Notes under the pieces: model-generated
The model's database searches: none
What the model saw: only the letters and a program-made list of their open reading frames with translations
Told to the model about the DNA's origin: nothing
DNA from: a virus
Length of the DNA stretch: 64,000 bases
Direction: 5' to 3' (one strand)
IMG/VR virus record: IMGVR_UViG_3300045996_001242
Span: 1-64,000 of that record
Made by a program: the position numbers and the translations under genes
Shown: in pieces, positions 8,618 to 44,042 of the stretch
Position numbering within the stretch: the first letter of the stretch is position 1
Layout: every line of letters starts with the position of its first letter

Positions 8618-8647
8618 TCGATTATCTCGATAATCCGGGTTGATTAA

Positions 8648-30804: not shown

Positions 30805-33800
30805 ATGGCCGACTTCAACATCCTCGATCCGTCGACGTGGCTCCCTTCGCAGGCCCCGGCGGCGCCAACGCCTGCCAATGCAGTGATCAACGGCGTCGAG
30901 GACCCCGGTCTTCCCCTTCCTGGTTCCGTCGCAGCGCCCGCGCCGGCTCCCGCCGCCCCAGTCCAGCCGCAGATGTCCGAAGCCGATAAGCTCCGGGCCG
31001 ACATGCTGCAGATCAACGCGGCGCTCGGGGATCCGGACGCCATGGCGGCGCTCGCCCTGTCCGAGCAGCGGGGCAACGGCCTCACTGCCAACAACCAGCT
31101 GCTCAACGACTTCGAAGGACTGACCCCGGTCCAGTTCCAGCAGAAGTACGGCGTCGGCACCTATCGGCGCCTGGTGACGTCCCGCATGCGTTCCCGCGAG
31201 GTTGTGGCCGATGCCAATCCCGATAGGGATCTCACCACGACGCTGTCCGACATCGGGATCGATGCCCTCGAGGGCGTGAACCAGACGGCCTATGGGGTCG
31301 CCGCAGCCGCCGTGCAGGCAGGTCTCGGACCTGGTCGTCCCAAGGACTGGCTACTCGAGCAGATCTCCGGGCTCTCCGCGGACCAGACGGCCCGTACCCG
31401 CCGGCTCGAAAGCGAGGAGCTCGCCGAGCACCGCCGTTATGACTCGATCCGTACGGCGCTCGATGATCTCGATGCCAAGGTGGCCAGCGGAGCCGACCAC
31501 GCCGACGACAGCAACTTCATCGACAATCTAGCCAGCTACGGCCGAGACTACCTCCGGGGCGCCGTCGATGCCGGCGGTCGCCTCATCGAAGATCCGACCA
31601 TGGCTGGAGCCCTGGCGGCTGAGGGCGTTGGTTCCCTCGCCGTGGGCGGGCCGCTCGCCAAGACCCTTTCGACGACTGCCCGGGCTGCAGGCCTCGCCGG
31701 CCGCGGCGCCGCCGAGCTGAGTGAAGAGGCGCTCACCAGGGCCATGTTCCCGGGTGGCATTGCCGCCATGGAAGCAGGCGGTGCTGCGATGCAGGCCGAG
31801 CAGGAAGTGCTCGCCATGACCGAGGGCCAGCTCCTCGAGAGCCCCAACTATCGCGAGCTCCTCCAGAACGGGTACACTCCCGAGGAAGCCCGGGCCCGGC
31901 TTGCGACGATCGCTGGCTCCATTGCTTCGGTGCCGGCGGCGCTCACCGGCGCCCTGACCGGTAAGCTCGTCGAGGGGATCGAACTTCGTCCTTTGCGTGC
32001 CGCTGGCCCGGCCGGCCTTGCCGTCAATGCCGGCAAGGAGACCGTCGAGGAAAGCATCCAGTCGACTGTCGGCCAGCTGGCCAGCAACACCGGTGTGGCG
32101 CTCTCCGGCGCCGACCCCGACAAAGATCTCGGCGAAGGACTGGGCCGGGCCACCGTCGAGGGTGCAGTTGCCGGTGCCGGCACGACGCTCCTGACGCAGG
32201 GACCTGGCGTTGCTCTTTCGACAGCAGCCAAGTCGATCGGCGCCACCATCACGTTCCCGGCCAAGGTCATCCGCGGCCTTGGCGAACGCAATCTCGCCGA
32301 GCGGGCTGCTGCGTCGCCGGTCTCCGCAGAGAGCATGGCTCCTGCCGTGCAGACGGCTGCCGAGCAGGCGCCGGCTGTGGCCGAGACGCTGCGCACCGTG
32401 GCCACTGAGCAGGGAGCCAGTGGAGCGGAAGTCGATAGCTACATCGAGAGCGTCCAGCAGGCTTCGCAGATCCAGCAGGCCGATGCTGCAATGATGCCGG
32501 CCATTCTCAAGGCCAAGCTCAAGGAAGCCCGTGATGTGCTGGGCAGGCTGCCCAACCGCTTCGAGGCGCTCCATGTCGCGGCGGTCCTCGCCGGCGACAA
32601 GTCGGCCGACCAGGACGATCGTACCGCAGCGGCGACCTTCATCCTCAAGAACATCGAGGCGAACCGGAAGCTCTTTGGCGAGCTCCCCACCTTCCTCGAG
32701 AACATCCCGTCCGATCGCCCGGAGTTCAAAGCCTTCAGCGATTACGCGGCGACGCTCGTCGCAATCGACCAGGAACCCGCTGTCCGCGATGCGGTGAAGT
32801 GGGCCCAGGAGGAGATGCAGCAGGCCGACCGGGATCTCTCCGCGGTCGATCTCAAGACGCCCGAAGGCCAGACCATCGTCGCCCAGGCTGTGCAGATGGC
32901 AGCGGTTGCACCGCAAGCGGTGAGCCCCAACGTCGCCGACCAGATCCTGCATCAGGCCGAGAAGGGCACGGCAACCCTCACCCCCGAGCAGCGCCGCATT
33001 CTTGCCGGTGCCTCGGCGATGAAGAAGGCCTCCGCTACCGCAGCCCAGGAGCTCGATGAAGATCCGGTCCAGCTGGTGGGCCGCCAGATCGAAACCGAGG
33101 GCGGAACTAAAGCCCATCAGATGGCCCTAGTTCAGCACGTCGCTGGCATCAATGAGGCTGTCGAGGCCGGCGACACGAAGACGGCGCAGGCTCGCATCAA
33201 CTCGCTGGGCATGTTTGCGCGCTCGATGCGCAACAAGGTTCAGGCGTTCAACACCGCGATCCAGAACGGCGATCGCAAGCGTGTGCCGTATCAGTCACTG
33301 GGTCGGGACGGCTGGCTGCCGAAGGACGAGTATTTCAGCGTCTTCTTCAACCCTGGCTCCGAGGCCTCCGAGCGCCTGGCTCGCCGGGTCCATGCCGAGG
33401 CGGCAATGATCGCAACCGTCGCCAACGAGTACGCCCGCCAGTTCCCCGAGCTGGGGATCCAGGAGGTGGCAATCCCGGCGCTCCGTCCGATGCCGGCCAA
33501 GGCCGAGTCGGCGGTTGAGAAAAATGATAAAAGGGGAGGCGCGACGTCGGAGGCGGCTGCTCCGTCCCAGGCTACCACGTCCAGGACAGAGGCCGCTCCC
33601 AAGCAGTCGGAGCCTCCCCTTCAGCCACCTGCGCCGACCAGGGAACCCGAGACGGCCGCTCCGGCTGTGGAGCCAGTCGCCTCAGAGGATTCTACCAATC
33701 AGCGTCAGGATGACGAACAGCCGGCCGAACCCCAGGTGGAGGTCGTTGCTGAGCCTGAGACCCAGCCGGCTGAAACAGTTTCGCAGGTTTCGGAGCCAGT

Positions 33801-36800
33801 TGCTACCAAACCCGAAGAAACCGCTGACGCTACGCCAGCGGCGATTGATGAGTTCGTGGATCCGCCGCCGTTCGTCGAGCCTACGATCGAGCAGCTGTTC
33901 CCGAACCTGGTTCAGCCCAAGGGCCGGAACTTCTTCCTCAAGGCCTTCCGCCTCCCGCAGGTACGGGCATCCCGTATCCTCGGCATGACGGCGCCGCTGC
34001 GTGAGTTCATCGGGGCCCTCTCGGATGGCGGCCGCCTGGTCGAGTGGCTGGGCGCCGATCGCAACGCCAACCTCAAGTATCGCGTGGATCCAGAGGACCG
34101 CGCCAACCTCGGCCAGCTGATGAAGATCGGCGTCGAGGTCCGCACCCTGATGCGGGATCGCCTCTTCAAAGTGCTCACCAGCCAGGAGGAGAAGGGCAAG
34201 CCGACCTACGTCGAGATGCTGGCTTCCGGCCGGGAGATCAACCAGTGGCGCCGCTTCCGTGCCCTGAACATTTTCGAGAAAACCGAAAAGGGTTATCTCT
34301 ATAATCAGTCCCTGGTCGAGGGGGCGATCCTCGCCGGCTTCGACTGGCTCCTCAATGCCGCCGATCGCAGCGTGCCCATGACCCGGCAGGATGTGGCGCA
34401 GCTGCTCGGGATCGATGAGGACACGGTCACCGATGACCAGGTCAAGGCGCTCAATAACGGCCTCTCGCTCGACATGGCGGTGCGCTCGCTCGCTGACAAC
34501 ATCCGCAAGTTCTGGGGTGTCGAAGCCAACAAAGACATGCCCGAGGATTACGTACGCGGGATCCCGCAGGCTGTGGCGCTCGAGGTGCTGCACGCCTTCG
34601 CCGAGATCGAGGTCAACATCGGGGAGGAGTCCTCTCCGCTTCTCGAGCTCGGCATCAAGTTCAGCGACGACAACGACAAGCGTCTGGCCTTCCCCGACGT
34701 CACCCACAAGAAGTTCAACCGGGTCTACTTCGACAAGCGCTCCGATGGCCTGAAGGAATACCTCCAGTCCCTCAACGGCGTCAGCAACCTGATCGCCGAC
34801 ATGGCGCTCATCGGGCGTGAGGTCGAGGGCTTCGCCTTCGAGCCGATCACTGAGGTCGACCAGGCCCAGTTGCGCAATCACCTGGTTCCGACCACGGCGC
34901 AGCAGAAGCAGGCCCTGGCCAATACCCAGGCAGCGCCGCACTACCCGAACCTGCCGATGTTCGACTTCATCACGGCGATGGGCGAGGAAGCCTTCGTCAC
35001 GCTGATGAGCAAGCGGCCCTACAAGAAGGGCGACCTCAAAAAGACCCATCGCGATATGGGCCTCAACAAGAACCACTGGAGCTCGCTCCAGGGCCTGCAG
35101 CGCCAGCTCGCATCTTCGTTCGAGCATGTGGCCAAGCAGATGGCGCAGCTCCAGAAGCACGGCGCCGATGCCGCGGTCTACTACAAGCACCACGTCAACA
35201 AGCTCGGCCGCCTGCAGATGGCGGGCCTCAGCAATCCGCAGAGCGACAAGCTCGCTCGCGAGATCTTCATGCCGACCCGGACCAGGCTCGATCTTTCCAA
35301 GCCCGGGAACGGAGACTTCCTCAAGTTCCTGATGACGATCGGCCAGGGCATCGGCCTGAAGACCGAGAAGGAGCCCCGGCGGGCCATCCTCAAGAAGGTC
35401 GTCGAGTCGACGATGACCGACGATGGAGCGCTGCGTCCTCTGGTCCTGGCTCTCAAGACCTGGCTCGAGGCTCGTGCCGCCGGCCAGGATACGACGATCC
35501 CGGCAGCGACCACTGAGCTGCTGACGGCGGCCGGGCTCTCGATGCACGGCATCCACTCGCTCATCACCGTCGCCCGCTACGAGCTCGATCGCGATGCTGG
35601 TCGGGACCTGACCCAGTTCGAGACGATGACCTACCTCGAGGCCGATGGCAAAACCAACGGCCCGATCAATTCGCTGATGCTCTACGGCAACGACGAGATC
35701 ACTCCCACCTGGCTCAAGACCGTGGCCAAGGGCGGTGCCTTCTTCGGGAAGCTGGGCAAGACGCTCAACTCCCACACGGAAGATGGCGAGGCCTTCAAGG
35801 ATCTCTACGAGGAAGGCGCGCTCGGCACCAACGATCGTGTAGCCGATCTCGGCCGTGCCATCCAGGCGAACGGCAACACCGCCGCCGGCGATCTCTTCAA
35901 GTCGTTCCAGCGGGTGCTGGCGGCGCTCGACGCCAACGTCGAGGTCGATCCCACGACCAAGGAGATCACCATCAAGCGTGGGATCACCAAGAACCCGCTG
36001 ACGATCACCATCTATGGTTCCGGCGCCAAGGGCATCGCCGGCAAGATCACCGACGAGCTGCTCGCTGCAATGTACGAGGCGCTATCGGCCTCGACCGAGA
36101 AGGACAGCCCCCGGGCCGGTGAGCTCATCTACGAGGGCGTCGAAGGCGCCGACTTCACGTCGGACCTGCAGGCGCTTCTCTCGGGTGTGCTCCGCAAGAA
36201 CAAGAAGGGCGAGTATTTCGTCGGCCGGGACAACGATCCCGATCTCAAGATCCGCGGCAATGCGCTCGACTTCACCCTGAGCCGCAAGCAGCGCGAGAAC
36301 CTCCGGGCCAACATCCAGGCGATGCTGGTGAAGCCGATGCGTGAGGCGATCAACGAGACGGTCACGACGCACGTGAGCGCCGTCACGGACTCGATGCAGC
36401 AGGCGACGCAGATCCAGTCTGTGTTCCTGCGCGCCATGTTCATCGACAAGCTCACGCACCGGCTGGCCATGAAGCAGGCCAGCCCGGAGAAGTTCGGCTA
36501 CATCAAGGGCGAGTTCCTCTCCCAGGCCGAGCTCGACGACATCATCAAGAGCCTGATGCCGTTCTCGCCGGTCATGAGCACCGGCACCCAGAGCTACTTC
36601 CTTTCGGGTGGCGAGACGTCGAACCTGCTCTCCCGCGAGGAAGAGCAGGCGGACGGGACGACCAAGACGATCCACGTCAAGATCGAGATCGCCGGCCAGG
36701 AGTTCGAGGTCCCGATGCCGGAGACCTTCGCCCGCTCGCTGACTGACGACATGTCGACGCCGGCCTTCACCTATGGTCCGACCCAGGCCGGCGTTAAGGC

Positions 36801-39800
36801 GATCCCGACGATCGTCGTCGGCTCGGGCGATGGGCAGATGATGCTCAACCTCCTCGCCGATCATCCCGACGTCGCCAAGCGTGTCGAGCACGTCTTCGAT
36901 GGTCTCGACATGCCGGCCGATGCGATCGACGACTATTCGCGCCTGGTGAACGAGGCGGTCTTCAAGACCTGGACCAGCAATGGCAACCCGGTCCGTGCCG
37001 CCTATGAAAGCTTCAAGACGTTCCTCGATCGCAATCCGATCGATGGGCTCTTCGGTGAAGCCAGCAAGCTCAACGAATACCAGCAGCAGGCGATGCAGGA
37101 TCTCGTCCGTGCTATGGGTCTTGACGAAGGCACCGAGGACACGCAGCTGGTGCAGGTCACCATGGACAGCCTGCTCGCCCGCATGAGCCAGCTGGCCGAC
37201 GAGACCGATGCCCGGCGCCTCACGTATGCCGAGTTCCCGTTCTCCGTCGACCAGATGGCGAGCGCGGAATCCCCGTATGTGAACCAGGGTTCCATCACGA
37301 TCGACGAGAACGCTACCTACGAGCAGATCGCCGATGCGATGAACGAGCGGTATCGCTTCCACCTGGCTCAGATCCAGGCGGCCAGCAAGGATGCGCCGGC
37401 GCCCAATTCGATCCAGGAACAGGTGACTGCAGCGGCCGATGAGTTCGGCGTGCAGGTCATGCCGGCAACCGAGCTCGAGGACCTCTACAAGAAGCTCCGC
37501 GAAAAGCTCAACCCGACCCAGAAGGAGATGATGCGCCAGGCCGCCAAGCTCCTGAAGGACTCGGGGTATCGTCTCGGCTTCGGCACGAGCTCGCAGCTCG
37601 ACGCCTGGGAACAGGCGAACAACGCTGATCGCTTCATCCCTGGCTCCAACAGCCACCGCGGCAAGATCGATCCGGTCTCGAAGCTGATCCTCATCTCGAG
37701 CATGGAAGCCGAGACGGTCATCCACGAGCTGGTCCACGCAGCTACGATCGACAAGGTGCGGGCCTACTATGCCGATCCCAAGACGCTCGCTCCCGAAGAG
37801 CGGGATGCCGTCGTTCGCCTCGAGGGGCTGATGGAAGATTGGCTCGACCAGGATCCCGGCAAGGAGACTGCCGAAGGGCAGGATGCTCGCGCTCTGGCCG
37901 AGGCCGAGATCGCCAAGTGGCAGGACAAAGGCCGCAAGGCCGAAGCGCTCAACGAGTTCATGGCCTGGGTGCTCGGCAACCAGGACCTCGCCGAGCGGGC
38001 CCAGAAGATCAAGATCAAGAACCCGGTGCTGCGTGTCGTGAGCGAAGCGCTGGCGGCGCTGAAGTCGCTGCTCTGGGGCGCCAAGAACAAGGGTCCCCGT
38101 GTCGGTGACTCGCTGCTCTCGAACCTGCGCTTCAACACCCGCGTGCTGATGAACGGGCCGACCTCGATCGAGAGGCTCAAGGCGGACAGCGCCGCAGTGG
38201 CGCTCTACCAGTCGAGCTCGTTTGGCGACAATCCGCGGCTCACGGCGCTCCGCCAGAAGATCCACAATCGTGTCATCTCCTGGATCGACAGCGCTACCGA
38301 TCCGCTCGCCAAGAGCCGCCGGCAGGTTGACACCTTCAACCAGGGTCTTCTCGCCGATCAGCTGACCGGTGAGTTCGCCTATCACTTCGAGGATCTCGGG
38401 ACGCTGCAGGCCAAGGGCACGTTCTCGGAGATCCAGCTGATGCTGATGACCGAGGCCGAGCTCAACCCCAGTGCGCTTTCGCGCATGGAGGATCTCTATA
38501 CGCACGTCATCGGGCAGCTGAAGTTCGAGGACTTCCTCGCCGATCGCAATGCATCGCCGCGGGATCCCAACGACGAACGCCAGGCCCAGGACAAGCTCAA
38601 GGTGCTGCAGGGCAAGACGATGACCGTGACTGACAAGTCCGGCCGCTCCTCGCTGCTCTCTTCGTTCCTGGCTCTGGCGATGACCAGCGACCAGTTCCGC
38701 ACCATCCTATCCGGCATCCAGAAGCCGGCGTCGGACAAGAGCGATGCCAAGGGCTTCGATGCCGTGCTCGAGAACGCAGCGACCGCTGCGATCGACCGGC
38801 TCGGGATCCTGATGTCGGGGGAGAAGGGCAAGGACGGCAACGTCCGTGACGCCCTCGACCGGCTGATGTACGCCATGATCGAGAACGTGGGCGACCAGCG
38901 CACTCACATCGAGCGCAAGATCGAGCACGGCTTCGAGAAGATCGAGACGCTTGTCGCCGATCAGATCCAGGAGAAGAGCGCTCTCGTCGCCGAGAAGGCG
39001 AAGGACATTCGCGCCAATTCCAGGAGCCGCGTCGTCAAGGCCGGCGCTACCCTGGTTGGGTTCGTGGCCGACATGGTCAACGAGGAGAATGCCGCCGAAG
39101 CGCAGATGGGCATGGTCCACTGGCTCAACAAGCACAAGGGCTTTGAGAGCGTCCGGGCCCTGGTCAACGACGTCGTCGGCCGCACTCGCGAGAATGCGCC
39201 GGTCTTCGACATGATCTCCAAGGTCCGCGCCACCGTGCAGCAGGTCCGCCAGCAGTTCCGCGACGAGCTGCCGGTGAAGCTCAATCGCATGTTCGAGAAG
39301 CCTGTCTCGGAGGCGAAGTGGACGGCGATGTTCAAGACGCTGGGTCGGACCGACCTCGCTGCTCTGACCGGCGCCTATGGCGTCGACGGTGCGCTCGAGA
39401 TGGTTTCCAACCAGCAGCGCCGGGAGACCGAGATCCGCACCCTCGAGGGCAAGTTCGATCCGCGCTTCCACGAGAAGGCCAAGCAGCTCGCCCACTTCAT
39501 GGTGAGCGGTGAGCATGGCACGAAGCTCTTGCGCAATGCCTATGCGATCGCTGCCTTGACGATCCCCGGGATCAAGAACCTGAACCCCACTCAGGAGATG
39601 GTCGACGAGCTCGACCGCCTGGTGACGCTCTACGCTATCGAGGAGACCGACCAGGCCAGCAAGGATGCCGTCATCGAGCTGATGCGGGACGAGGAAGCCG
39701 GCGTCGAGTTCGTCACCAGCTACCTGATGGGCCAGCGAGTCGATGAGCTCGCCAAGGTCGCAATGACGCCGGTGGCGAAGATCAACCACTACAAGGGCCA

Positions 39801-41556
39801 TCTCCCCTCCGAGGCGCAGAAGGGCGGCTCGCTGATCATCGCTTCGGACACCGAGAACGCGACGCTCATCAGCCGCGGCTACACCCGGGTCATGGATTAC
39901 GGCGGCTCCTCGGCCGATCGTCTCCTGGGCCGGCGTGGCTACTATTTCGCGCCTGTCTCGGGCCGCGCTCCCTTCACGCAGGGTGTGCTGCAGACCGTCC
40001 ATCAGACGGCCTCGGGTGTGGATCCGGAAACCGGATTTACGGTTGGCGAAGTCATGGCCGGGCGGATCGAGGATCCTCGTGAGATCCAGGTCATCGAGCG
40101 CTTGCTCCGCAACCAGAGCCAGACGAGCGAGAACCTCCTTCCCGTCTTCGACGACAAGGGCAGGATCGTCGCCTTCGAACGTGCGGCCGATCCCAGCCAG
40201 CTGCAGAAGCTCAACCGCTCGACGGACCTTGCGGCAATGATCGGCGTGTGGCGTGGTCGCCAGGCCGAGGAGCTGCTCGCCCAGGAGGTGAACAAGCAGC
40301 TGGTCGACAATCTCTACGAGATCTGGAAGCAGGGGGAGAGGGAAGGTCGCAAGGGTGAGTTCGTGAACATCGCGAAGCTCGATCCGCGCACCGACGATCG
40401 CGTGCTCATCGAGGCGGTCAACCTCATCCCGAACCAGGCAGCGTCCTACATCAAGTCGGTCTTCGGGCCTGATCGTTTCATGGTTCGCCGTGACATGCTG
40501 CTCGACACCTTCGGCGCCCGCCAGGCGTCGGTCGGGGATCTCTTCTCGGGGCATACCCGCTGGAGCCCCAAGATCGCCAGCGAGTTCGAGAAGTACGCTG
40601 CCGGCATCATGGGCAAGAAGGCCTACCCGATCCTCGTCGGCGGCGAGAAGAACATCCAGGAGCTGGTCTCGAACGTGAAGACCATGATCGTGGTGAAGTC
40701 GGTCATCGTGCCGGCGGCCAACATGGTCTCCAACATGTTCCAGCTTCTGGCTCGAGGTGTGCCGGTGCGTTCCATCATCCACGGCGTCGGCGCCAAGACG
40801 GCTGAGATCAGCACCTACGTGAAGCGTCGCCAGCAGGAGATCGACCTCGAGGCGGATCTGCGTGCCGCTCGCGGCAAGGGTGACTTCATCGCCGAGCGTA
40901 CGATCGAGGCGAAGATCCAGTCGATCCAGGACAGCTACAAGCGCATGGCCATCTGGCCGCTCATCGAAGCCGGTGAGTTCTCGGCGATCTCCAATGGCCA
41001 GGTGACGGCCGAGGACCTGTCGCTCGCCAACGGCACCTGGACGGACTGGGTCGAGCGCAAGGTGAACCAGCTCAGGGAGCCGCTACGAACGCCGGCGCGG
41101 TATGCGCTCATCACTCGCGACACCACTCTGTTCCAGGGCCTCGCTCGTGCGGTCCAGTACGGTGACTTCGTCGCCAAGGCGGTACTCTACGATGACCTGA
41201 CCAAGCGCAAGAAGATGACTCAGAAGGACGCCATAGCCACGGTGAATGAGGCCTTCGTGAACTACAACCGGCTCGCCGGCCGCGGCCGTCAGTATCTCGA
41301 GAGCGTCGGCCTGCTCTGGTTCTACAACTACAAGCTTCGCATCCTCAAAGAGGCGGCCTATCAGCTGCGTCACAATCCGCTCCGTTCCCTGATGGCGGTC
41401 GCTGTCCCGGGCCTGCCGCTGATCGGCGACATCGGCACTCCGGTGACCGACAACATCCTGGCGTTGTTCAATGATGGGAAGCTCGGCTACTCGATCGGCC
41501 CCGGTATGGGCCTCGGCAGCTGGCAGCTCAACCCCTGGCTCAACCTCGCCAGGTAA
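30805..41556 (+). CDS. Virion-encapsidated RNA polymerase (N4 gp50-like, 3583 aa)
   Basis: Size; GRLQM, motif A EADGKTNG, motif B RGITKNPLTITIYGSG, motif C VFDG; no Cys noticed; C-terminal NPW. Confidence 0.97.
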   Translation: MADFNILDPSTWLPSQAPAAPTPANAVINGVEDPGLPLPGSVAAPAPAPAAPVQPQMSEADKLRADMLQINAALGDPDAMAALALSEQRGNGLTANNQLLNDFEGLTPVQFQQKYGVGTYRRLVTSRMRSREVVADANPDRDLTTTLSDIGIDALEGVNQTAYGVAAAAVQAGLGPGRPKDWLLEQISGLSADQTARTRRLESEELAEHRRYDSIRTALDDLDAKVASGADHADDSNFIDNLASYGRDYLRGAVDAGGRLIEDPTMAGALAAEGVGSLAVGGPLAKTLSTTARAAGLAGRGAAELSEEALTRAMFPGGIAAMEAGGAAMQAEQEVLAMTEGQLLESPNYRELLQNGYTPEEARARLATIAGSIASVPAALTGALTGKLVEGIELRPLRAAGPAGLAVNAGKETVEESIQSTVGQLASNTGVALSGADPDKDLGEGLGRATVEGAVAGAGTTLLTQGPGVALSTAAKSIGATITFPAKVIRGLGERNLAERAAASPVSAESMAPAVQTAAEQAPAVAETLRTVATEQGASGAEVDSYIESVQQASQIQQADAAMMPAILKAKLKEARDVLGRLPNRFEALHVAAVLAGDKSADQDDRTAAATFILKNIEANRKLFGELPTFLENIPSDRPEFKAFSDYAATLVAIDQEPAVRDAVKWAQEEMQQADRDLSAVDLKTPEGQTIVAQAVQMAAVAPQAVSPNVADQILHQAEKGTATLTPEQRRILAGASAMKKASATAAQELDEDPVQLVGRQIETEGGTKAHQMALVQHVAGINEAVEAGDTKTAQARINSLGMFARSMRNKVQAFNTAIQNGDRKRVPYQSLGRDGWLPKDEYFSVFFNPGSEASERLARRVHAEAAMIATVANEYARQFPELGIQEVAIPALRPMPAKAESAVEKNDKRGGATSEAAAPSQATTSRTEAAPKQSEPPLQPPAPTREPETAAPAVEPVASEDSTNQRQDDEQPAEPQVEVVAEPETQPAETVSQVSEPVATKPEETADATPAAIDEFVDPPPFVEPTIEQLFPNLVQPKGRNFFLKAFRLPQVRASRILGMTAPLREFIGALSDGGRLVEWLGADRNANLKYRVDPEDRANLGQLMKIGVEVRTLMRDRLFKVLTSQEEKGKPTYVEMLASGREINQWRRFRALNIFEKTEKGYLYNQSLVEGAILAGFDWLLNAADRSVPMTRQDVAQLLGIDEDTVTDDQVKALNNGLSLDMAVRSLADNIRKFWGVEANKDMPEDYVRGIPQAVALEVLHAFAEIEVNIGEESSPLLELGIKFSDDNDKRLAFPDVTHKKFNRVYFDKRSDGLKEYLQSLNGVSNLIADMALIGREVEGFAFEPITEVDQAQLRNHLVPTTAQQKQALANTQAAPHYPNLPMFDFITAMGEEAFVTLMSKRPYKKGDLKKTHRDMGLNKNHWSSLQGLQRQLASSFEHVAKQMAQLQKHGADAAVYYKHHVNKLGRLQMAGLSNPQSDKLAREIFMPTRTRLDLSKPGNGDFLKFLMTIGQGIGLKTEKEPRRAILKKVVESTMTDDGALRPLVLALKTWLEARAAGQDTTIPAATTELLTAAGLSMHGIHSLITVARYELDRDAGRDLTQFETMTYLEADGKTNGPINSLMLYGNDEITPTWLKTVAKGGAFFGKLGKTLNSHTEDGEAFKDLYEEGALGTNDRVADLGRAIQANGNTAAGDLFKSFQRVLAALDANVEVDPTTKEITIKRGITKNPLTITIYGSGAKGIAGKITDELLAAMYEALSASTEKDSPRAGELIYEGVEGADFTSDLQALLSGVLRKNKKGEYFVGRDNDPDLKIRGNALDFTLSRKQRENLRANIQAMLVKPMREAINETVTTHVSAVTDSMQQATQIQSVFLRAMFIDKLTHRLAMKQASPEKFGYIKGEFLSQAELDDIIKSLMPFSPVMSTGTQSYFLSGGETSNLLSREEEQADGTTKTIHVKIEIAGQEFEVPMPETFARSLTDDMSTPAFTYGPTQAGVKAIPTIVVGSGDGQMMLNLLADHPDVAKRVEHVFDGLDMPADAIDDYSRLVNEAVFKTWTSNGNPVRAAYESFKTFLDRNPIDGLFGEASKLNEYQQQAMQDLVRAMGLDEGTEDTQLVQVTMDSLLARMSQLADETDARRLTYAEFPFSVDQMASAESPYVNQGSITIDENATYEQIADAMNERYRFHLAQIQAASKDAPAPNSIQEQVTAAADEFGVQVMPATELEDLYKKLREKLNPTQKEMMRQAAKLLKDSGYRLGFGTSSQLDAWEQANNADRFIPGSNSHRGKIDPVSKLILISSMEAETVIHELVHAATIDKVRAYYADPKTLAPEERDAVVRLEGLMEDWLDQDPGKETAEGQDARALAEAEIAKWQDKGRKAEALNEFMAWVLGNQDLAERAQKIKIKNPVLRVVSEALAALKSLLWGAKNKGPRVGDSLLSNLRFNTRVLMNGPTSIERLKADSAAVALYQSSSFGDNPRLTALRQKIHNRVISWIDSATDPLAKSRRQVDTFNQGLLADQLTGEFAYHFEDLGTLQAKGTFSEIQLMLMTEAELNPSALSRMEDLYTHVIGQLKFEDFLADRNASPRDPNDERQAQDKLKVLQGKTMTVTDKSGRSSLLSSFLALAMTSDQFRTILSGIQKPASDKSDAKGFDAVLENAATAAIDRLGILMSGEKGKDGNVRDALDRLMYAMIENVGDQRTHIERKIEHGFEKIETLVADQIQEKSALVAEKAKDIRANSRSRVVKAGATLVGFVADMVNEENAAEAQMGMVHWLNKHKGFESVRALVNDVVGRTRENAPVFDMISKVRATVQQVRQQFRDELPVKLNRMFEKPVSEAKWTAMFKTLGRTDLAALTGAYGVDGALEMVSNQQRRETEIRTLEGKFDPRFHEKAKQLAHFMVSGEHGTKLLRNAYAIAALTIPGIKNLNPTQEMVDELDRLVTLYAIEETDQASKDAVIELMRDEEAGVEFVTSYLMGQRVDELAKVAMTPVAKINHYKGHLPSEAQKGGSLIIASDTENATLISRGYTRVMDYGGSSADRLLGRRGYYFAPVSGRAPFTQGVLQTVHQTASGVDPETGFTVGEVMAGRIEDPREIQVIERLLRNQSQTSENLLPVFDDKGRIVAFERAADPSQLQKLNRSTDLAAMIGVWRGRQAEELLAQEVNKQLVDNLYEIWKQGEREGRKGEFVNIAKLDPRTDDRVLIEAVNLIPNQAASYIKSVFGPDRFMVRRDMLLDTFGARQASVGDLFSGHTRWSPKIASEFEKYAAGIMGKKAYPILVGGEKNIQELVSNVKTMIVVKSVIVPAANMVSNMFQLLARGVPVRSIIHGVGAKTAEISTYVKRRQQEIDLEADLRAARGKGDFIAERTIEAKIQSIQDSYKRMAIWPLIEAGEFSAISNGQVTAEDLSLANGTWTDWVERKVNQLREPLRTPARYALITRDTTLFQGLARAVQYGDFVAKAVLYDDLTKRKKMTQKDAIATVNEAFVNYNRLAGRGRQYLESVGLLWFYNYKLRILKEAAYQLRHNPLRSLMAVAVPGLPLIGDIGTPVTDNILALFNDGKLGYSIGPGMGLGSWQLNPWLNLAR

Positions 41557-41600
41557 GAGAAAGGCCAGGGAGGTCTCTCGCGAGATCGGTCTCCCTGGCC
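41555..41600 (-). terminator. Terminator at the convergence of late and middle transcription
   Basis: 10-bp stem GGCCAGGGAG/CTCCCTGGCC with an inner hairpin (GCGA loop on minus), followed by TTTCTCTT on minus. Confidence 0.65.
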
Positions 41601-41604
41601 CCTC

Positions 41605-41925
41605 CAGGCCGGTTGCAACATCCGACATCGCCCACCGTGGATGCGGGAGCTACCCAGACCACGGGTCGGTTAAGGGACGGCCTGAACTGAAGAGCCCCCG
41701 ACGCGAGCTGAGGGGGGCAGCGCGTCGGGGGCGGACGTCAGGATCGAAGGTCGCACTGGGGGGGCAAAGCAGGGCGTTGGAGGACCTACCTAGCTGCCCG
41801 CCATCGATCCTGGCGCGGGAGGAGCTGCAGCGAAGCTTCATGGTCGTCCGCCCATGAGCCAGGTGAGAGTGCATCGCCGCAACGGGAGCCGTAACTGTGA
41901 TCCCGACTCATCGGTTCCGAACAAT
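41605..41925. ncRNA. Candidate large structured ncRNA (~320 nt)
   Basis: Consecutive stems 41605-11/41678-84 (nested CCGAC/GTCGG and CCGTGG/CCACGG), 41694-705/41721-32 (12 bp perfect), 41736-47/41804-15, and GAGCC-A-GGTGAG/CTCATC-GGTTC; no credible ORF. Confidence 0.55.
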
Positions 41926-41930
41926 TTTAG

Positions 41931-42050
41931 CTACTCGGGATCCTGCTGAGCTCGTTGCTCGATATCCTTGACCACCCACATGGCCCACATGCCGATCAGG
42001 AAACCCAGCGCGAGGCCGACAATCACGCCTCCGATGAACCATTCGATCAT
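41931..42050 (-). CDS. Small membrane peptide (39 aa), not in the ORF track
   Basis: MIEWFIGGVIVGLALGFLIGMWAMWVVKDIEQRAQQDPE; GAGGGGG RBS. Confidence 0.65.
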   Translation of the reverse strand: MIEWFIGGVIVGLALGFLIGMWAMWVVKDIEQRAQQDPE

Positions 42051-42074
42051 ATATTCGTGCCCCCTCGAACCCGG

Positions 42075-42437
42075 CTAAGCGACGTCACCAGTTAGCAAAA
42101 ACGACCTGAAGGCCGCAGTAAACTGTCCGTTATCCTCGAAGACCTCTATTTCGAGATCCTCGTCCGGGTAGGCCCAGAGCGGGTACGGCCGGCGGGCATT
42201 GAGCGGGCGCATCAGACGCACGAACTTGCCGCGGACCTTGAGCTGGACGTGGCCCATGGAGAGCGAGCCATCGGCTGGATCCTGGCGGATCCACCAACCT
42301 TGCTCGCTGCCGTCGCTGAGATCCTGGAGGCACTCCTCCATGTGCAGCTTCTCGAGGTTGAGGTAGAGCTGGCCCATGCACTTGAGGAGATTCCCCTCGT
42401 TGAAGAGGTCCCGGGGGATGACGCGGTTGTAGGTCAT
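42075..42437 (-). CDS. Hypothetical phage protein (120 aa)
   Basis: YNRVIPRDLFNEGNLLKC...RPLNARRPYPL; coupled to the upstream gene. Confidence 0.75.
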   Translation of the reverse strand: MTYNRVIPRDLFNEGNLLKCMGQLYLNLEKLHMEECLQDLSDGSEQGWWIRQDPADGSLSMGHVQLKVRGKFVRLMRPLNARRPYPLWAYPDEDLEIEVFEDNGQFTAAFRSFLLTGDVA

Positions 42438-42820
42438 GTCAGTGGATCCAGTATCACGTCCCTGCGTGCGTCCTCAATTTGGACCGCCCGCAGAGCCTTG
42501 ATGATGCGAATGTAGTAGCCCCTCGTGCCGACGACTCCGAATTCGCGGCCGATGGCGCCCTTCAGCACCTCTATCTCGGCAGCTGACGGCTCATAATCCG
42601 AGGTCAGCCGGCCGGTGTCATCGCGCTCGAGGTGGTTGAGGATCGTCGCAATGGTGCGGGCCTGGTAGTCGGCTTCGATCTCGGCCTTCTTGTCGGCGAT
42701 CTGCTCGTCGGACATGTTGGTCGGACAGAAGGCAGCGAACTCCCCGCCGAGTCCGAAGCCTCGGGTCTTGGCACGGCCGAAGACCTCGCCGTTGACCCAG
42801 AAGAGGGGTTTAAGCTTCAT
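42434..42820 (-). CDS. Hypothetical protein (128 aa)
   Basis: ATG right after the dUTPase stop; its stop overlaps the next start. Confidence 0.65.
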   Translation of the reverse strand: MKLKPLFWVNGEVFGRAKTRGFGLGGEFAAFCPTNMSDEQIADKKAEIEADYQARTIATILNHLERDDTGRLTSDYEPSAAEIEVLKGAIGREFGVVGTRGYYIRIIKALRAVQIEDARRDVILDPLT

Positions 42821-42821
42821 C

Positions 42822-43280
42822 TCACTTCCCCGTGGATCCAAGGCCGCCGGCATCACGCTGGGTGTCGCCGAGCTCGGGTACGTCGACGAAGACCGCCCGG
42901 AAAATCGGGACGATGACCAGCTGGGCGATGCGGTGACCAAAGTCGACGGTGAAATCCTGCGAGCTATGGTTGATCAGGATCACCTTGATCTCGCCGCGGT
43001 AATCGCTGTCGATGGTCCCGGGGGTGTTATTGATGCTGATGCCATGTTTGGCCGCCAGCCCGGAGCGGGGGCGGACCTGTGCCTCGAAGCCGAGGGGCAG
43101 CTCAATGGCGATGCCAGTGCCCACTACCCGCTGTCCGCCGGCTGGGATGACTGTACGCTCACTTGCGAAGAGATCGGCGCCAGCGGCCTCGGCTGAGGCG
43201 TAGAAGGGTACGTGAGCGTCCGAGTTCAGCCTCTTGAAGCGAACGTTGACGGTCGCGAGACCGTCGAGGGGGTTCCACAT
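42822..43280 (-). CDS. dut: Trimeric dUTPase
   Basis: AAGADL, RPRSGLA, GTIDSDYRGEI, RIAQ and RDAGGLGSTG motifs. Confidence 0.95.
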   Translation of the reverse strand: MWNPLDGLATVNVRFKRLNSDAHVPFYASAEAAGADLFASERTVIPAGGQRVVGTGIAIELPLGFEAQVRPRSGLAAKHGISINNTPGTIDSDYRGEIKVILINHSSQDFTVDFGHRIAQLVIVPIFRAVFVDVPELGDTQRDAGGLGSTGK

Positions 43281-43316
43281 TGTAACGATCCTGAAACGAT
43301 GTTGTAACGCTGGGGC

Positions 43317-43499
43317 CTAGCGTGGAGGCCCCAGCTCTCTGCTCTGTTCGTCCTGATTTTCCCTCAAAACCGCGTAGACGATTCCGGAGATAATCGAGGT
43401 GATTATCAGGAAAATCATTATCGGGATTAGGGCGAAGAAGGCGAACAGTCCGGCGGTGATGAGGCCCCCAATAACGAGGGCCCTGAGAAGGAGGTTCAC
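43317..43499 (-). CDS. Small membrane protein
   Basis: Long hydrophobic stretch; AT-rich coding sequence carrying GATAAT motifs. Confidence 0.55.
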   Translation of the reverse strand: MNLLLRALVIGGLITAGLFAFFALIPIMIFLIITSIISGIVYAVLRENQDEQSRELGPPR

Positions 43500-43509
43500 C
43501 TGGGCCGGC

Positions 43510-44037
43510 TTAGTTCGGCTTGCCGAGGTTGGCGAACAGTGACTTCGCCTTCACGGTCGGATCGACTTCCGCGGCCGGCGGGGGCGGCGGTGCCGAGGTC
43601 GAGACGTCAGGGAAGATCTTCGTCGTGGCCGTGACAGGCTTGGCCTTCGCTGGCTCCTGGACCGGCGCCGTCTCAGGCTTCGGCGGATCCACGTCGAACG
43701 GGGGTTCGTCCTTTACCTCTGGCTCAGGAGCTGCCTCGATCGTCGCGGCCGGCAGGGGTGCCGGAGCCGGAATGGGCTTGGTCGACCGGGGCTTGGAAGC
43801 CGGCTTGGTTGTGGGAGCGGGCTTCTCGGCCGGCAGATCCCCAGCCGTGCTGGTGATGTCGATGAAGCCGGCAAGGTCGCCCTTGTCGTCGTCGGCGAAT
43901 TCGACGTCGATCTTGGCATCCGGTGCGGCTGCCAGCTCGACCTTGGCTTTGATAAAGGCGAGGACAGCTTCCTTGAGCTCATCCTGGTTCAGGATGACCT
44001 GGGTGACCGTCACGACGCGGGCGGTGGAAATTTGCAT
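43510..44037 (-). CDS. Conserved N4-like protein with Pro-rich tail
   Basis: VILNQDELKEAV..FI N-terminus and KSLFANL C-terminus. Confidence 0.7.
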   Translation of the reverse strand: MQISTARVVTVTQVILNQDELKEAVLAFIKAKVELAAAPDAKIDVEFADDDKGDLAGFIDITSTAGDLPAEKPAPTTKPASKPRSTKPIPAPAPLPAATIEAAPEPEVKDEPPFDVDPPKPETAPVQEPAKAKPVTATTKIFPDVSTSAPPPPPAAEVDPTVKAKSLFANLGKPN

Positions 44038-44042
44038 TGGGT

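Follow-up and report, generated by a model that had tools for sequence, protein, structure and literature searches.

RNA genes at the middle/late junction of N4-like phages

In N4-like phages (Schitoviridae) the middle and late gene blocks usually converge on one another. Phage Zuri carries three tRNAs (Gln, Asp, Asn) in a 360-nt gap at this junction, between the last middle gene and the gene for the virion RNA polymerase (vRNAP), and N4 itself has four tRNAs nearby (Pro, Thr, Ser, Asn), unannotated in EF056009. In LUZ7, ONT-cappable-seq showed the 398-nt gap between orf69 and orf70 to be heavily transcribed late and to yield the small RNAs sRNA1-3 (Putzeys et al. 2022, PMC9163698). The same study found that LUZ7 middle transcripts run antisense into late genes, and reported an antisense interplay of middle with late transcripts for both LUZ7 and LIT1 (PMC9163698). 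We find in the LUZ7 gap a sigma70-like promoter, TTGACT-N17-CATAGT, and a fold z-score of -6.2. N4-like roseophages also have a gap between vRNAP and the last middle gene, unannotated and 180-420 nt long.

Most relatives of the phage described below have fewer than 40 nt at the junction. RHph_X2_28B, RHph_Y38, HN04 and metagenomic relatives show a plain terminator there or no gap at all, and in the IMG/VR provirus L003 there is a single 10-bp hairpin, the convergent ORFs overlapping. The junction of the middle block with vRNAP is a recurrent home of RNA genes in the Schitoviridae, be they tRNAs, sRNAs or structured RNA, or else it is empty. All that the nearest relatives have at the site is a plain hairpin or terminator, which shows termination to be its basic job.

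A further point of comparison is the cuckoo or alpha-r14 family (RF02344), to which NfeR1 and CcsR1-4 belong. Its members are made up of adjacent hairpins, two to four in number and 24-50 nt in size, whose loops of 9-27 nt all contain CCUCCUCCC (Reinkensmeier & Giegerich 2015, PMC4615179). The CcsR RNAs are co-transcribed with a small upstream gene (PMC4615179).

The phage and its gap

The window analysed here covers 64,000 nt from the start of an IMG/VR virus record whose full length is 77.6 kb. The phage is N4-like (Schitoviridae), its genome has a G+C content of 62% and its host is probably a soil alphaproteobacterium, and in all likelihood one of the Hyphomicrobiales. The C-terminal 399 aa of its vRNAP match N4-like vRNAPs in 468 phage (Schitoviridae) records, RHph_X2_28B among them. 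Over this region the best named match is Rhizobium phage RHph_X3_15 (57%), and the closest relative among the records searched is provirus L003 (75% amino-acid identity). A vRNAP-based search for syntenic relatives found none in genome contigs, and L003, its best match, lacks the gap. Short pieces identical to the window, offering neither variants nor covariation, are present in two soil metagenome runs from two studies; they may simply be the same phage. The junction is laid out as follows.

30805-41556, plus strand: vRNAP ORF of 3583 aa (ORF list), with its stop codon TAA at 41554-41556
41557-41930: gap of 374 nt, 65% G+C
41931-42050, minus strand: last gene of the middle block, a 39-aa single-pass membrane ORF (ORF list, codon-phase G+C periodicity)

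The 39-aa ORF has GAGGGGG upstream and a weak, sub-threshold match to DUF5957. The minus-strand genes beyond vRNAP continue from it with a 120-aa ORF, a 168-aa ORF, a dUTPase and, farther off, a RuvC-like resolvase. In the gap, G+C is flat over the three codon phases (0.55-0.78), which marks it as non-coding; in the flanking genes GC3 periodicity is strong, with a spread near 0.5. Its longest ORF, of 74 aa, has no tblastn match in phages. The plus strand is G-rich, with 133 G vs 111 C. An earlier note on this DNA had delimited a structured intergenic stretch at 41605-41925, and a non-coding, hairpin-rich gap is indeed present, its extent being slightly wider (41557-41930).

The setting is much like that of the LUZ7 sRNA1-3 region: in both phages a non-coding gap (about 400 nt in LUZ7) lies in a cargo locus between SSB or gp46-like genes and a convergent vRNAP, and consists of consecutive stable hairpins with C-rich loops, the LUZ7 products being on the middle-gene strand. 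Unlike the gap described here, that of LUZ7 has a clear promoter, canonical U-tract terminators and three small ORFs between it and vRNAP. The two gaps have no similarity by sequence or covariance model, and expression is known for LUZ7 only.

The region from the vRNAP stop to the RuvC-like resolvase (41557-44040) is a hypervariable cargo locus, its content different in every relative with which it was compared (L003, L004, L006, L011 and L001). Here it holds the gap, the 39-aa TM ORF, the 120-aa and 168-aa ORFs, the dUTPase, a 60-aa TM ORF and a 175-aa ORF. A direct repeat, GCCAGGT[A/G]AGAG, occurs at 41548 and 41858. It was considered as a target-site duplication and judged to be due to chance, there being no terminal inverted repeats.

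Hairpins of the gap

From the vRNAP side to the membrane ORF, the gap contains the following elements.

P6, 41555-41606, minus strand: terminator hairpin with 10-bp G+C arms (41563-41572/41591-41600) and an inner stem (inverted repeat I5)
P5, 41605-41684, strand not assigned: nested domain of 7+5+6 bp that folds with z -2.2 on plus and -1.1 on minus
P4, 41694-41705/41721-41732, minus strand: perfect 12-bp G+C stem with a 15-nt loop (inverted repeat I2; z -6.47 minus, -5.34 plus)
P3, 41733-41816, minus strand: long bent hairpin of 84 nt with a closing stem of 12-15 bp, 41736-41750/41801-41815 (inverted repeat I1; z -2.7 minus, -3.1 plus)
Linker, 41817-41824, minus strand: single-stranded CUCCUCCC between P2 and P3, unpaired with a probability of about 0.99 on minus
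P2, 41824-41884, minus strand: hairpin of 61 nt (MFE -26.2, z -2.76 on minus vs -17.4, z +0.29 on plus)
P1, 41885-41930, strand not assigned: P1 and an AU-rich single-stranded stretch, CUAAAAUUGUU on minus (z -1.8 plus, -0.1 minus)

All of the stems listed in the earlier note are thus in place: the nested 7+5+6 domain (P5), the perfect 12-bp stem (P4), the stem of 12-15 bp (P3), and P2 and P1. So is the minus-strand terminator which it had seen closing the region. Only on the minus strand does P6 lead into a U-tract, UUUCUCUU (41562-41555), and this tract overlaps the TAA stop of vRNAP; the tail of P6 on plus is CCCUCCAGG, with no U-tract. Against dinucleotide shuffles P6 folds with z -5.26 on minus and -3.02 on plus. 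It therefore has, on the minus strand and not on the plus, the stable G+C-rich stem-loop and U-tract by which an intrinsic (Rho-independent) terminator is recognised. A simple terminator scan skipped it because its 18-nt interior is above the loop limit of the tool. With its G+C-rich hairpins, and with P6 and its U-tract of the class I or intrinsic type on minus, the gap is like the intrinsic terminators found between convergent genes, for example the terminator pairs of LUZ7 (PMC9163698); unlike these, it is ten times longer than needed, terminates in one direction and has four further structured domains.

On the minus strand the loop of P4 is CCCCCCUC and its tail is CUCUUCAGUUC, a poor U-tract, so that P4 could at most terminate leakily or protect a 3' end. 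P3 presents on minus an apical 7-nt loop, CUCCAAC, and a C7 run that is partly unpaired; one of its pairs is G-U on plus and an A-C mismatch on minus. P2 folds well on minus only. The inner hairpin of P5, GGG-AGCUA-CCC (41645-41655), is an 11-mer in common with a roseophage hairpin that follows the vRNAP stop (P about 0.03-0.05). The P1 region lies directly past the stop of the 39-aa membrane ORF; on plus it forms a weak hairpin followed by AAUUUU at about 41925, the sole plus-strand U-run in the gap. The doubt about strand expressed in the earlier note is a fair one, given that P2 folds on minus only, P5 folds better on plus and P3 has its G-U pair on plus.

Fold strength and SD-like words compared with chance

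Measured against dinucleotide shuffles, P4 and P6 are far beyond chance and P3 is moderate (z about -3 on both strands). The folding advantage anticipated in the earlier note is accordingly strong for these two hairpins, P4 and P6, while for the gap as a whole z is only -1.87 on plus and -2.89 on minus. The P2-P4 core reaches z -3.9 on minus and -1.7 on plus. Among random windows of 195 nt taken from this genome, for which the background mean z is -1.1, 6% match the former value. Outside P4 and P6, the fold of the gap is ordinary for this genome.

The G-rich words that had been picked out on the plus strand are at 41644 and 41883 (CGGGAGC), 41710 (GAGGGGGG), 41779 (GGAGGA) and 41817 (GGGAGGAG); a run given as G8 is in fact G7 (41758-41764). 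Words of the form GGAG|GAGG number 10 on plus, compared with 9.3 +/- 2.8 in dinucleotide shuffles, and G5 runs are mildly enriched there (6 vs 2.1, P=0.035). On minus, three anti-SD words are unpaired in the MFE structure, one in the linker (CUCCUCCC) and two in loops (CUCCAAC in P3, CCCCCCUC in P4), compared with 1.35 +/- 1.05 in 120 dinucleotide shuffles (P=0.125). One of the 10 SD-like words on plus is unpaired, 0.56 being expected. The SD and anti-SD words are explained by base composition, and a 'multivalent' anti-SD design has no statistical support.

This bears directly on the two functions suggested in the earlier note. An anti-SD repressor mimicking cuckoo or AbcR RNAs finds no support in a word count and loop placement within chance, or in an ar14 score of 15.8 bits vs the 58.8 demanded by Rfam. 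The alternative of a sponge acting through G-rich loops of the plus strand fares no better, since the words are not enriched and only 1 of 10 is unpaired on that strand.

Searches for families, homologues and signals

No match at gathering score was obtained in a search of the whole 64-kb window against Rfam, in line with the earlier note, which could not assign the element to a known family. At E<=10, the interval 41400-42100 yielded noise alone, including ar14 at 15.8 bits (E=1.6; gathering score 58.8). In a search of the whole genome ar14 (RF02344) scores 7.5 bits, and of 14 unrelated genomes used as controls 9 likewise have sub-threshold hits to its model. Identity with cuckoo or ar14 RNAs was rejected on these grounds, the 15.8 bits falling below the cut-off and in the range of the control noise. 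There are nevertheless likenesses to the family: a probable alphaproteobacterial host, unpaired C-rich anti-SD-like words, of which one occupies a terminator-type hairpin loop, and a possible co-transcription with a small upstream ORF. In contrast to cuckoo RNAs, CUCCUCCC occurs once, in a linker, P3 and P2 measure 84 and 61 nt, and no promoter of the gap's own was found. The linker is the only near-full cuckoo-type word and is outside any hairpin loop; the loops themselves carry CUCCAAC (7 nt) and CCCCCCUC (a 15-nt loop), which departs from the definition of the family.

Homologues of the gap were sought widely. None was found by blastn against phages, plasmids and the records of relatives (including RHph_X2_28B), in 49 viral loci carrying homologues of the 120-aa gene, by BLAST against 5 alphaproteobacterial and then 401 Hyphomicrobiales genomes, or with the P4 hairpin pattern in IMG/VR. 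BLAST matches of about 30 nt in the Hyphomicrobiales genomes sit within unrelated long ORFs. A covariance model of the minus-strand core (R1), built from a single sequence, matched only itself in its own genome, the relatives, LUZ7, 151 Hyphomicrobiales genomes and 64 loci; weak matches in L019 and L050 were dismissed as generic hairpins and a tandem repeat.

No sigma70-like promoter is seen on either strand, within the gap or upstream of it, at 9/12, nor above 7/12 in a looser scan. No plus-strand terminator was found in 41000-42600, and the gap has no exact complementarity of at least 14 nt with other parts of the phage genome. None of the 31 occurrences of the 7-mer GATTATC/GATAATC, discussed at the end of this paper, is in the gap. 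Given the tRNAs of Zuri and N4 at the locus, and an 8/4 tRNA-Tyr hidden in the present genome, a tRNA cluster was worth testing for. No Rfam tRNA model gives a match in 41400-42100 at E<=10, and ARAGORN is silent in the gap until a noise-level threshold is reached (144 calls genome-wide). A cloverleaf descriptor (acceptor and T stems of 12 bp divided 7/5, 8/4 or 9/3, D arm, 5-bp anticodon stem and 7-nt loop with U33 and R37) finds nothing in 41520-41980, even with one acceptor mismatch. Its only match in the 77.6 kb is the tRNA-Tyr of the 8/4 type, at 49476-49396, which both ARAGORN and Rfam miss.

A conserved element in roseophages

At the same junction, N4-like roseophages of four genera of the Rhodovirinae (DSS3phi2/V17, DFL12phi1, RPP1/RLP1 and R7L) share an element of about 190 nt, located at L211:3644-4061 (Ruegeria phage V17 = DSS3phi2), L213:517-709, L214:504-687, L215:487-670 and L217:2638-2819. 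It has an invariant core and eight helices, and its consensus structure, in which 93% of cells are paired, has good support. Both sides have changed in 14 pairs, compared with 6.3 +/- 1.7 in shuffles (none of 500 as high), and slid controls yield only 1-4 such pairs. Its G-U pairs are on the middle-gene strand, and the V17 gap folds with z -5.0. The element matches no Rfam family, and a limited literature search found no description of it. It looks like an undescribed conserved phage RNA.

The roseophage element and the present gap share their junction, a multi-hairpin make-up, alphaproteobacterial hosts (probable here) and the hairpin word GGGAGCUACCC, which at 11 nt is weak evidence of a relationship. 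Unlike the roseophage element, conserved over four genera with covariation, the gap is without relatives in the searches made. A covariance model of five roseophage sequences (R2) does not match it under default filters, and with the filters off gives 5.1 bits to the 11-nt hairpin word. The roseophage element is a better object of study than the orphan gap described here.

Interpretation of the gap

We give about an even chance to the reading that the gap is the structured minus-strand 3' tail of the last middle operon, P4 serving as a leaky barrier and P6 as the final terminator that insulates vRNAP, with a stable RNA as a possible product. Transcripts leaving the 39-aa gene would pass through hairpins P1-P3 on the minus strand and then reach P4, which would act as a leaky stop or as a block to exonucleases. 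P6 with UUUCUCUU would end them exactly on the vRNAP stop codon, and middle transcription would thereby be kept from running antisense into the late vRNAP gene. Being palindromic, the hairpins would also fold the 3' end of the plus-strand vRNAP mRNA, which is without a canonical terminator. A likely by-product is a stable 3'UTR-derived RNA, about 200-370 nt long and spanning P2-P4 or P1-P6, which might itself be functional. We infer throughout the reading polymerase, the transcript ends and the accumulation of a stable RNA.

Several observations favour this minus-strand tail. The U-tract and the folding of P2 are confined to minus, and the core folds with z -3.9 on that strand vs -1.7 on plus; middle transcripts of LUZ7 do otherwise run antisense into late genes (PMC9163698); and the G-U pairs of the roseophage element are on the middle-gene strand. 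As neither a promoter nor a GATTATC/GATAATC motif is present in the gap, transcripts are most simply accounted for by read-through from the operon. The presence of RNA genes at the same locus in other Schitoviridae raises the prior for a stable minus-strand RNA here, while not being evidence on the gap sequence itself. The reading is weakened by a length of about 370 nt, which far exceeds what a terminator needs, by the lack of a proper U-tract at P4, by the better fit of P5 and one P3 pair to the plus strand, and by a fold that is unexceptional beyond P4 and P6.

Other explanations deserve to be weighed. It is unlikely, if not negligibly so, that the gap yields a trans-acting minus-strand sRNA, either a processing product of the 3'UTR or the transcript of a phage promoter that escaped recognition, whose C-rich sites pair with the ribosome binding sites of host or phage. 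Such an RNA would act in the manner of cuckoo RNAs, NfeR1 or CcsR while lying outside that family. Its C-rich sites (the CUCCUCCC linker, a UCCUCC loop and the CCCCCCUC terminator loop) are unpaired on minus with a probability of about 0.9-0.99, and the order of hairpin, linker motif, hairpin and terminator hairpin with a loop motif recalls ar14. Co-transcription with a small upstream gene is also a feature of the CcsR RNAs (PMC4615179), the abundant LUZ7 sRNAs arise from a gap at the same locus, and that locus is a hot spot for RNA genes in other Schitoviridae. Nevertheless, word count and loop placement are within chance, the ar14 score (15.8 bits vs 58.8) is of a kind seen as noise in 9 of 14 genomes, the one near-full motif is not in a hairpin loop and no promoter was found; nor was there phage complementarity of 14 nt or more, or a homologue in 401 (BLAST) or 151 (covariance model) Hyphomicrobiales genomes. 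Far less credible is a plus-strand RNA, the vRNAP 3'UTR, whose G-rich loops would act as a sponge, taking up either anti-SD sRNAs of the host or proteins that bind GGA, for instance CsrA/RsmA. That the plus strand is G-rich (133 G vs 111 C) and that the P4 loop exposes GAGGGGGG would suit it; the words, however, are not enriched and stay paired on plus (1 of 10 free vs 0.56 expected), and neither a terminator nor a promoter for a discrete plus-strand RNA was found. The idea that the gap holds clustered tRNA genes, unusual or decayed, like those at this locus in N4 and Zuri, can be regarded as already largely refuted. The three tRNAs that Zuri has within 360 nt at the junction, the four near it in N4, the 8/4 tRNA of the present phage and the anticodon-loop-like apical loop of P3 (C-U-CCA-A-C) had made it attractive, but ARAGORN, the Rfam tRNA models and the cloverleaf descriptor all lack a gap match above noise, and P3 is a long hairpin closed by a 12-bp stem rather than a cloverleaf.

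The gap might also be a functionless spacer, DNA imported by recombination into a hypervariable locus, with only P6 at work and the other stems incidental to a G+C-rich sequence. We think this improbable to much the degree that we do the trans-acting sRNA. The variation among all relatives between the vRNAP stop and about 44040, the orphan status of the element in every search and fold z-scores that are ordinary for the genome outside P4 and P6 are what it would predict. Phage genomes are compact, on the other hand, and the perfect 12-bp stem of P4 (z -6.5) is not incidental; functional RNA genes occupy the same locus in several Schitoviridae lineages, and identical pieces occur in two soil metagenome studies, though these may be the same phage. 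Somewhat less probable again is an overlap of convergent 3'UTRs, the vRNAP mRNA running to about 41925 and the middle transcript to 41557, so that a dsRNA of about 370 nt couples their decay, with RNase III as one possible agent, when the phage switches from middle to late expression. The best stop signal of each strand is indeed at the far side of the gap, beside the stop codon of the other gene, no plus-strand terminator was found in 41000-42600, and antisense interplay of middle and late transcripts occurs in LUZ7 and LIT1 (PMC9163698). The plus-strand stop at P1 is very weak, however (z -1.8; a U4 run 6 nt from the stem), and relatives without the gap still manage the switch.

To return to the minus-strand tail of the middle operon, an extension of it can be imagined that we consider speculative and rather improbable. 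The phage would be a temperate N4-like phage with a 3'UTR-derived sRNA of about 200 nt, whose three C-rich sites mimic anti-SD regulators of the cuckoo/NfeR1 type and retune host translation (of transporters, for example) in infection or lysogeny. The convergence gap of the Schitoviridae would then be a dedicated 'RNA-gene slot', filled according to lineage with tRNAs, sRNAs or conserved structured RNAs. The gap alone is an orphan and matters little unless expression shows a stable RNA. If the pattern holds, the junction slot is a good place to seek phage regulatory RNAs, and the roseophage element, with its cultured hosts Ruegeria pomeroyi DSS-3 and Dinoroseobacter shibae, is a tractable model for them.

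Other features of the genome

The 120-aa ORF beside the gap (42075-42437, minus strand) belongs to a widespread uncharacterised family, with 176 hits and no Pfam or PHROG match. The family has an invariant N-terminal motif, RVIPRDLFNE..LLKC, and its homologues were found in metagenome contigs of phage size as well as in genomes of Burkholderia and Paraburkholderia. The 3' end of the 120-aa ORF contains a terminator-like hairpin with a T5 run (42101-42116, minus strand). Lying upstream of the 39-aa ORF, this hairpin might be an attenuator placed before the last gene and the gap.

The 7-mer GATTATC/GATAATC occurs 31 times in the 77.6-kb genome, about 3.7 occurrences being expected, and often as an inverted pair that forms a 7-bp stem with a loop of 2-8 nt. 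Sites include 1147-1163, 1939-1960, 8620-8635 and 43389-43407, with 27 others and a cluster at 1100-2100. The hairpin may be an N4-type hairpin promoter, for vRNAP or RNAPII, or an operator.

Past the end of the window, at record positions 65059-65113, is the 3' half of a tRNA-Met(CAT) ending in CCA. Its 43-nt core has exact matches in at least 120 alphaproteobacterial genome contigs, from Bradyrhizobium, Methylobacterium, Microvirga, Nitrobacter, Phenylobacterium and other genera. Such matches would be consistent with an attP core, one too widely shared to name the host genus. Near both ends of the record, at 165 and 77100, is a word of about 21 nt, CATGGTGTGGTAGCTCCTGTG, a placement that would fit the direct terminal repeats of an N4-like genome.
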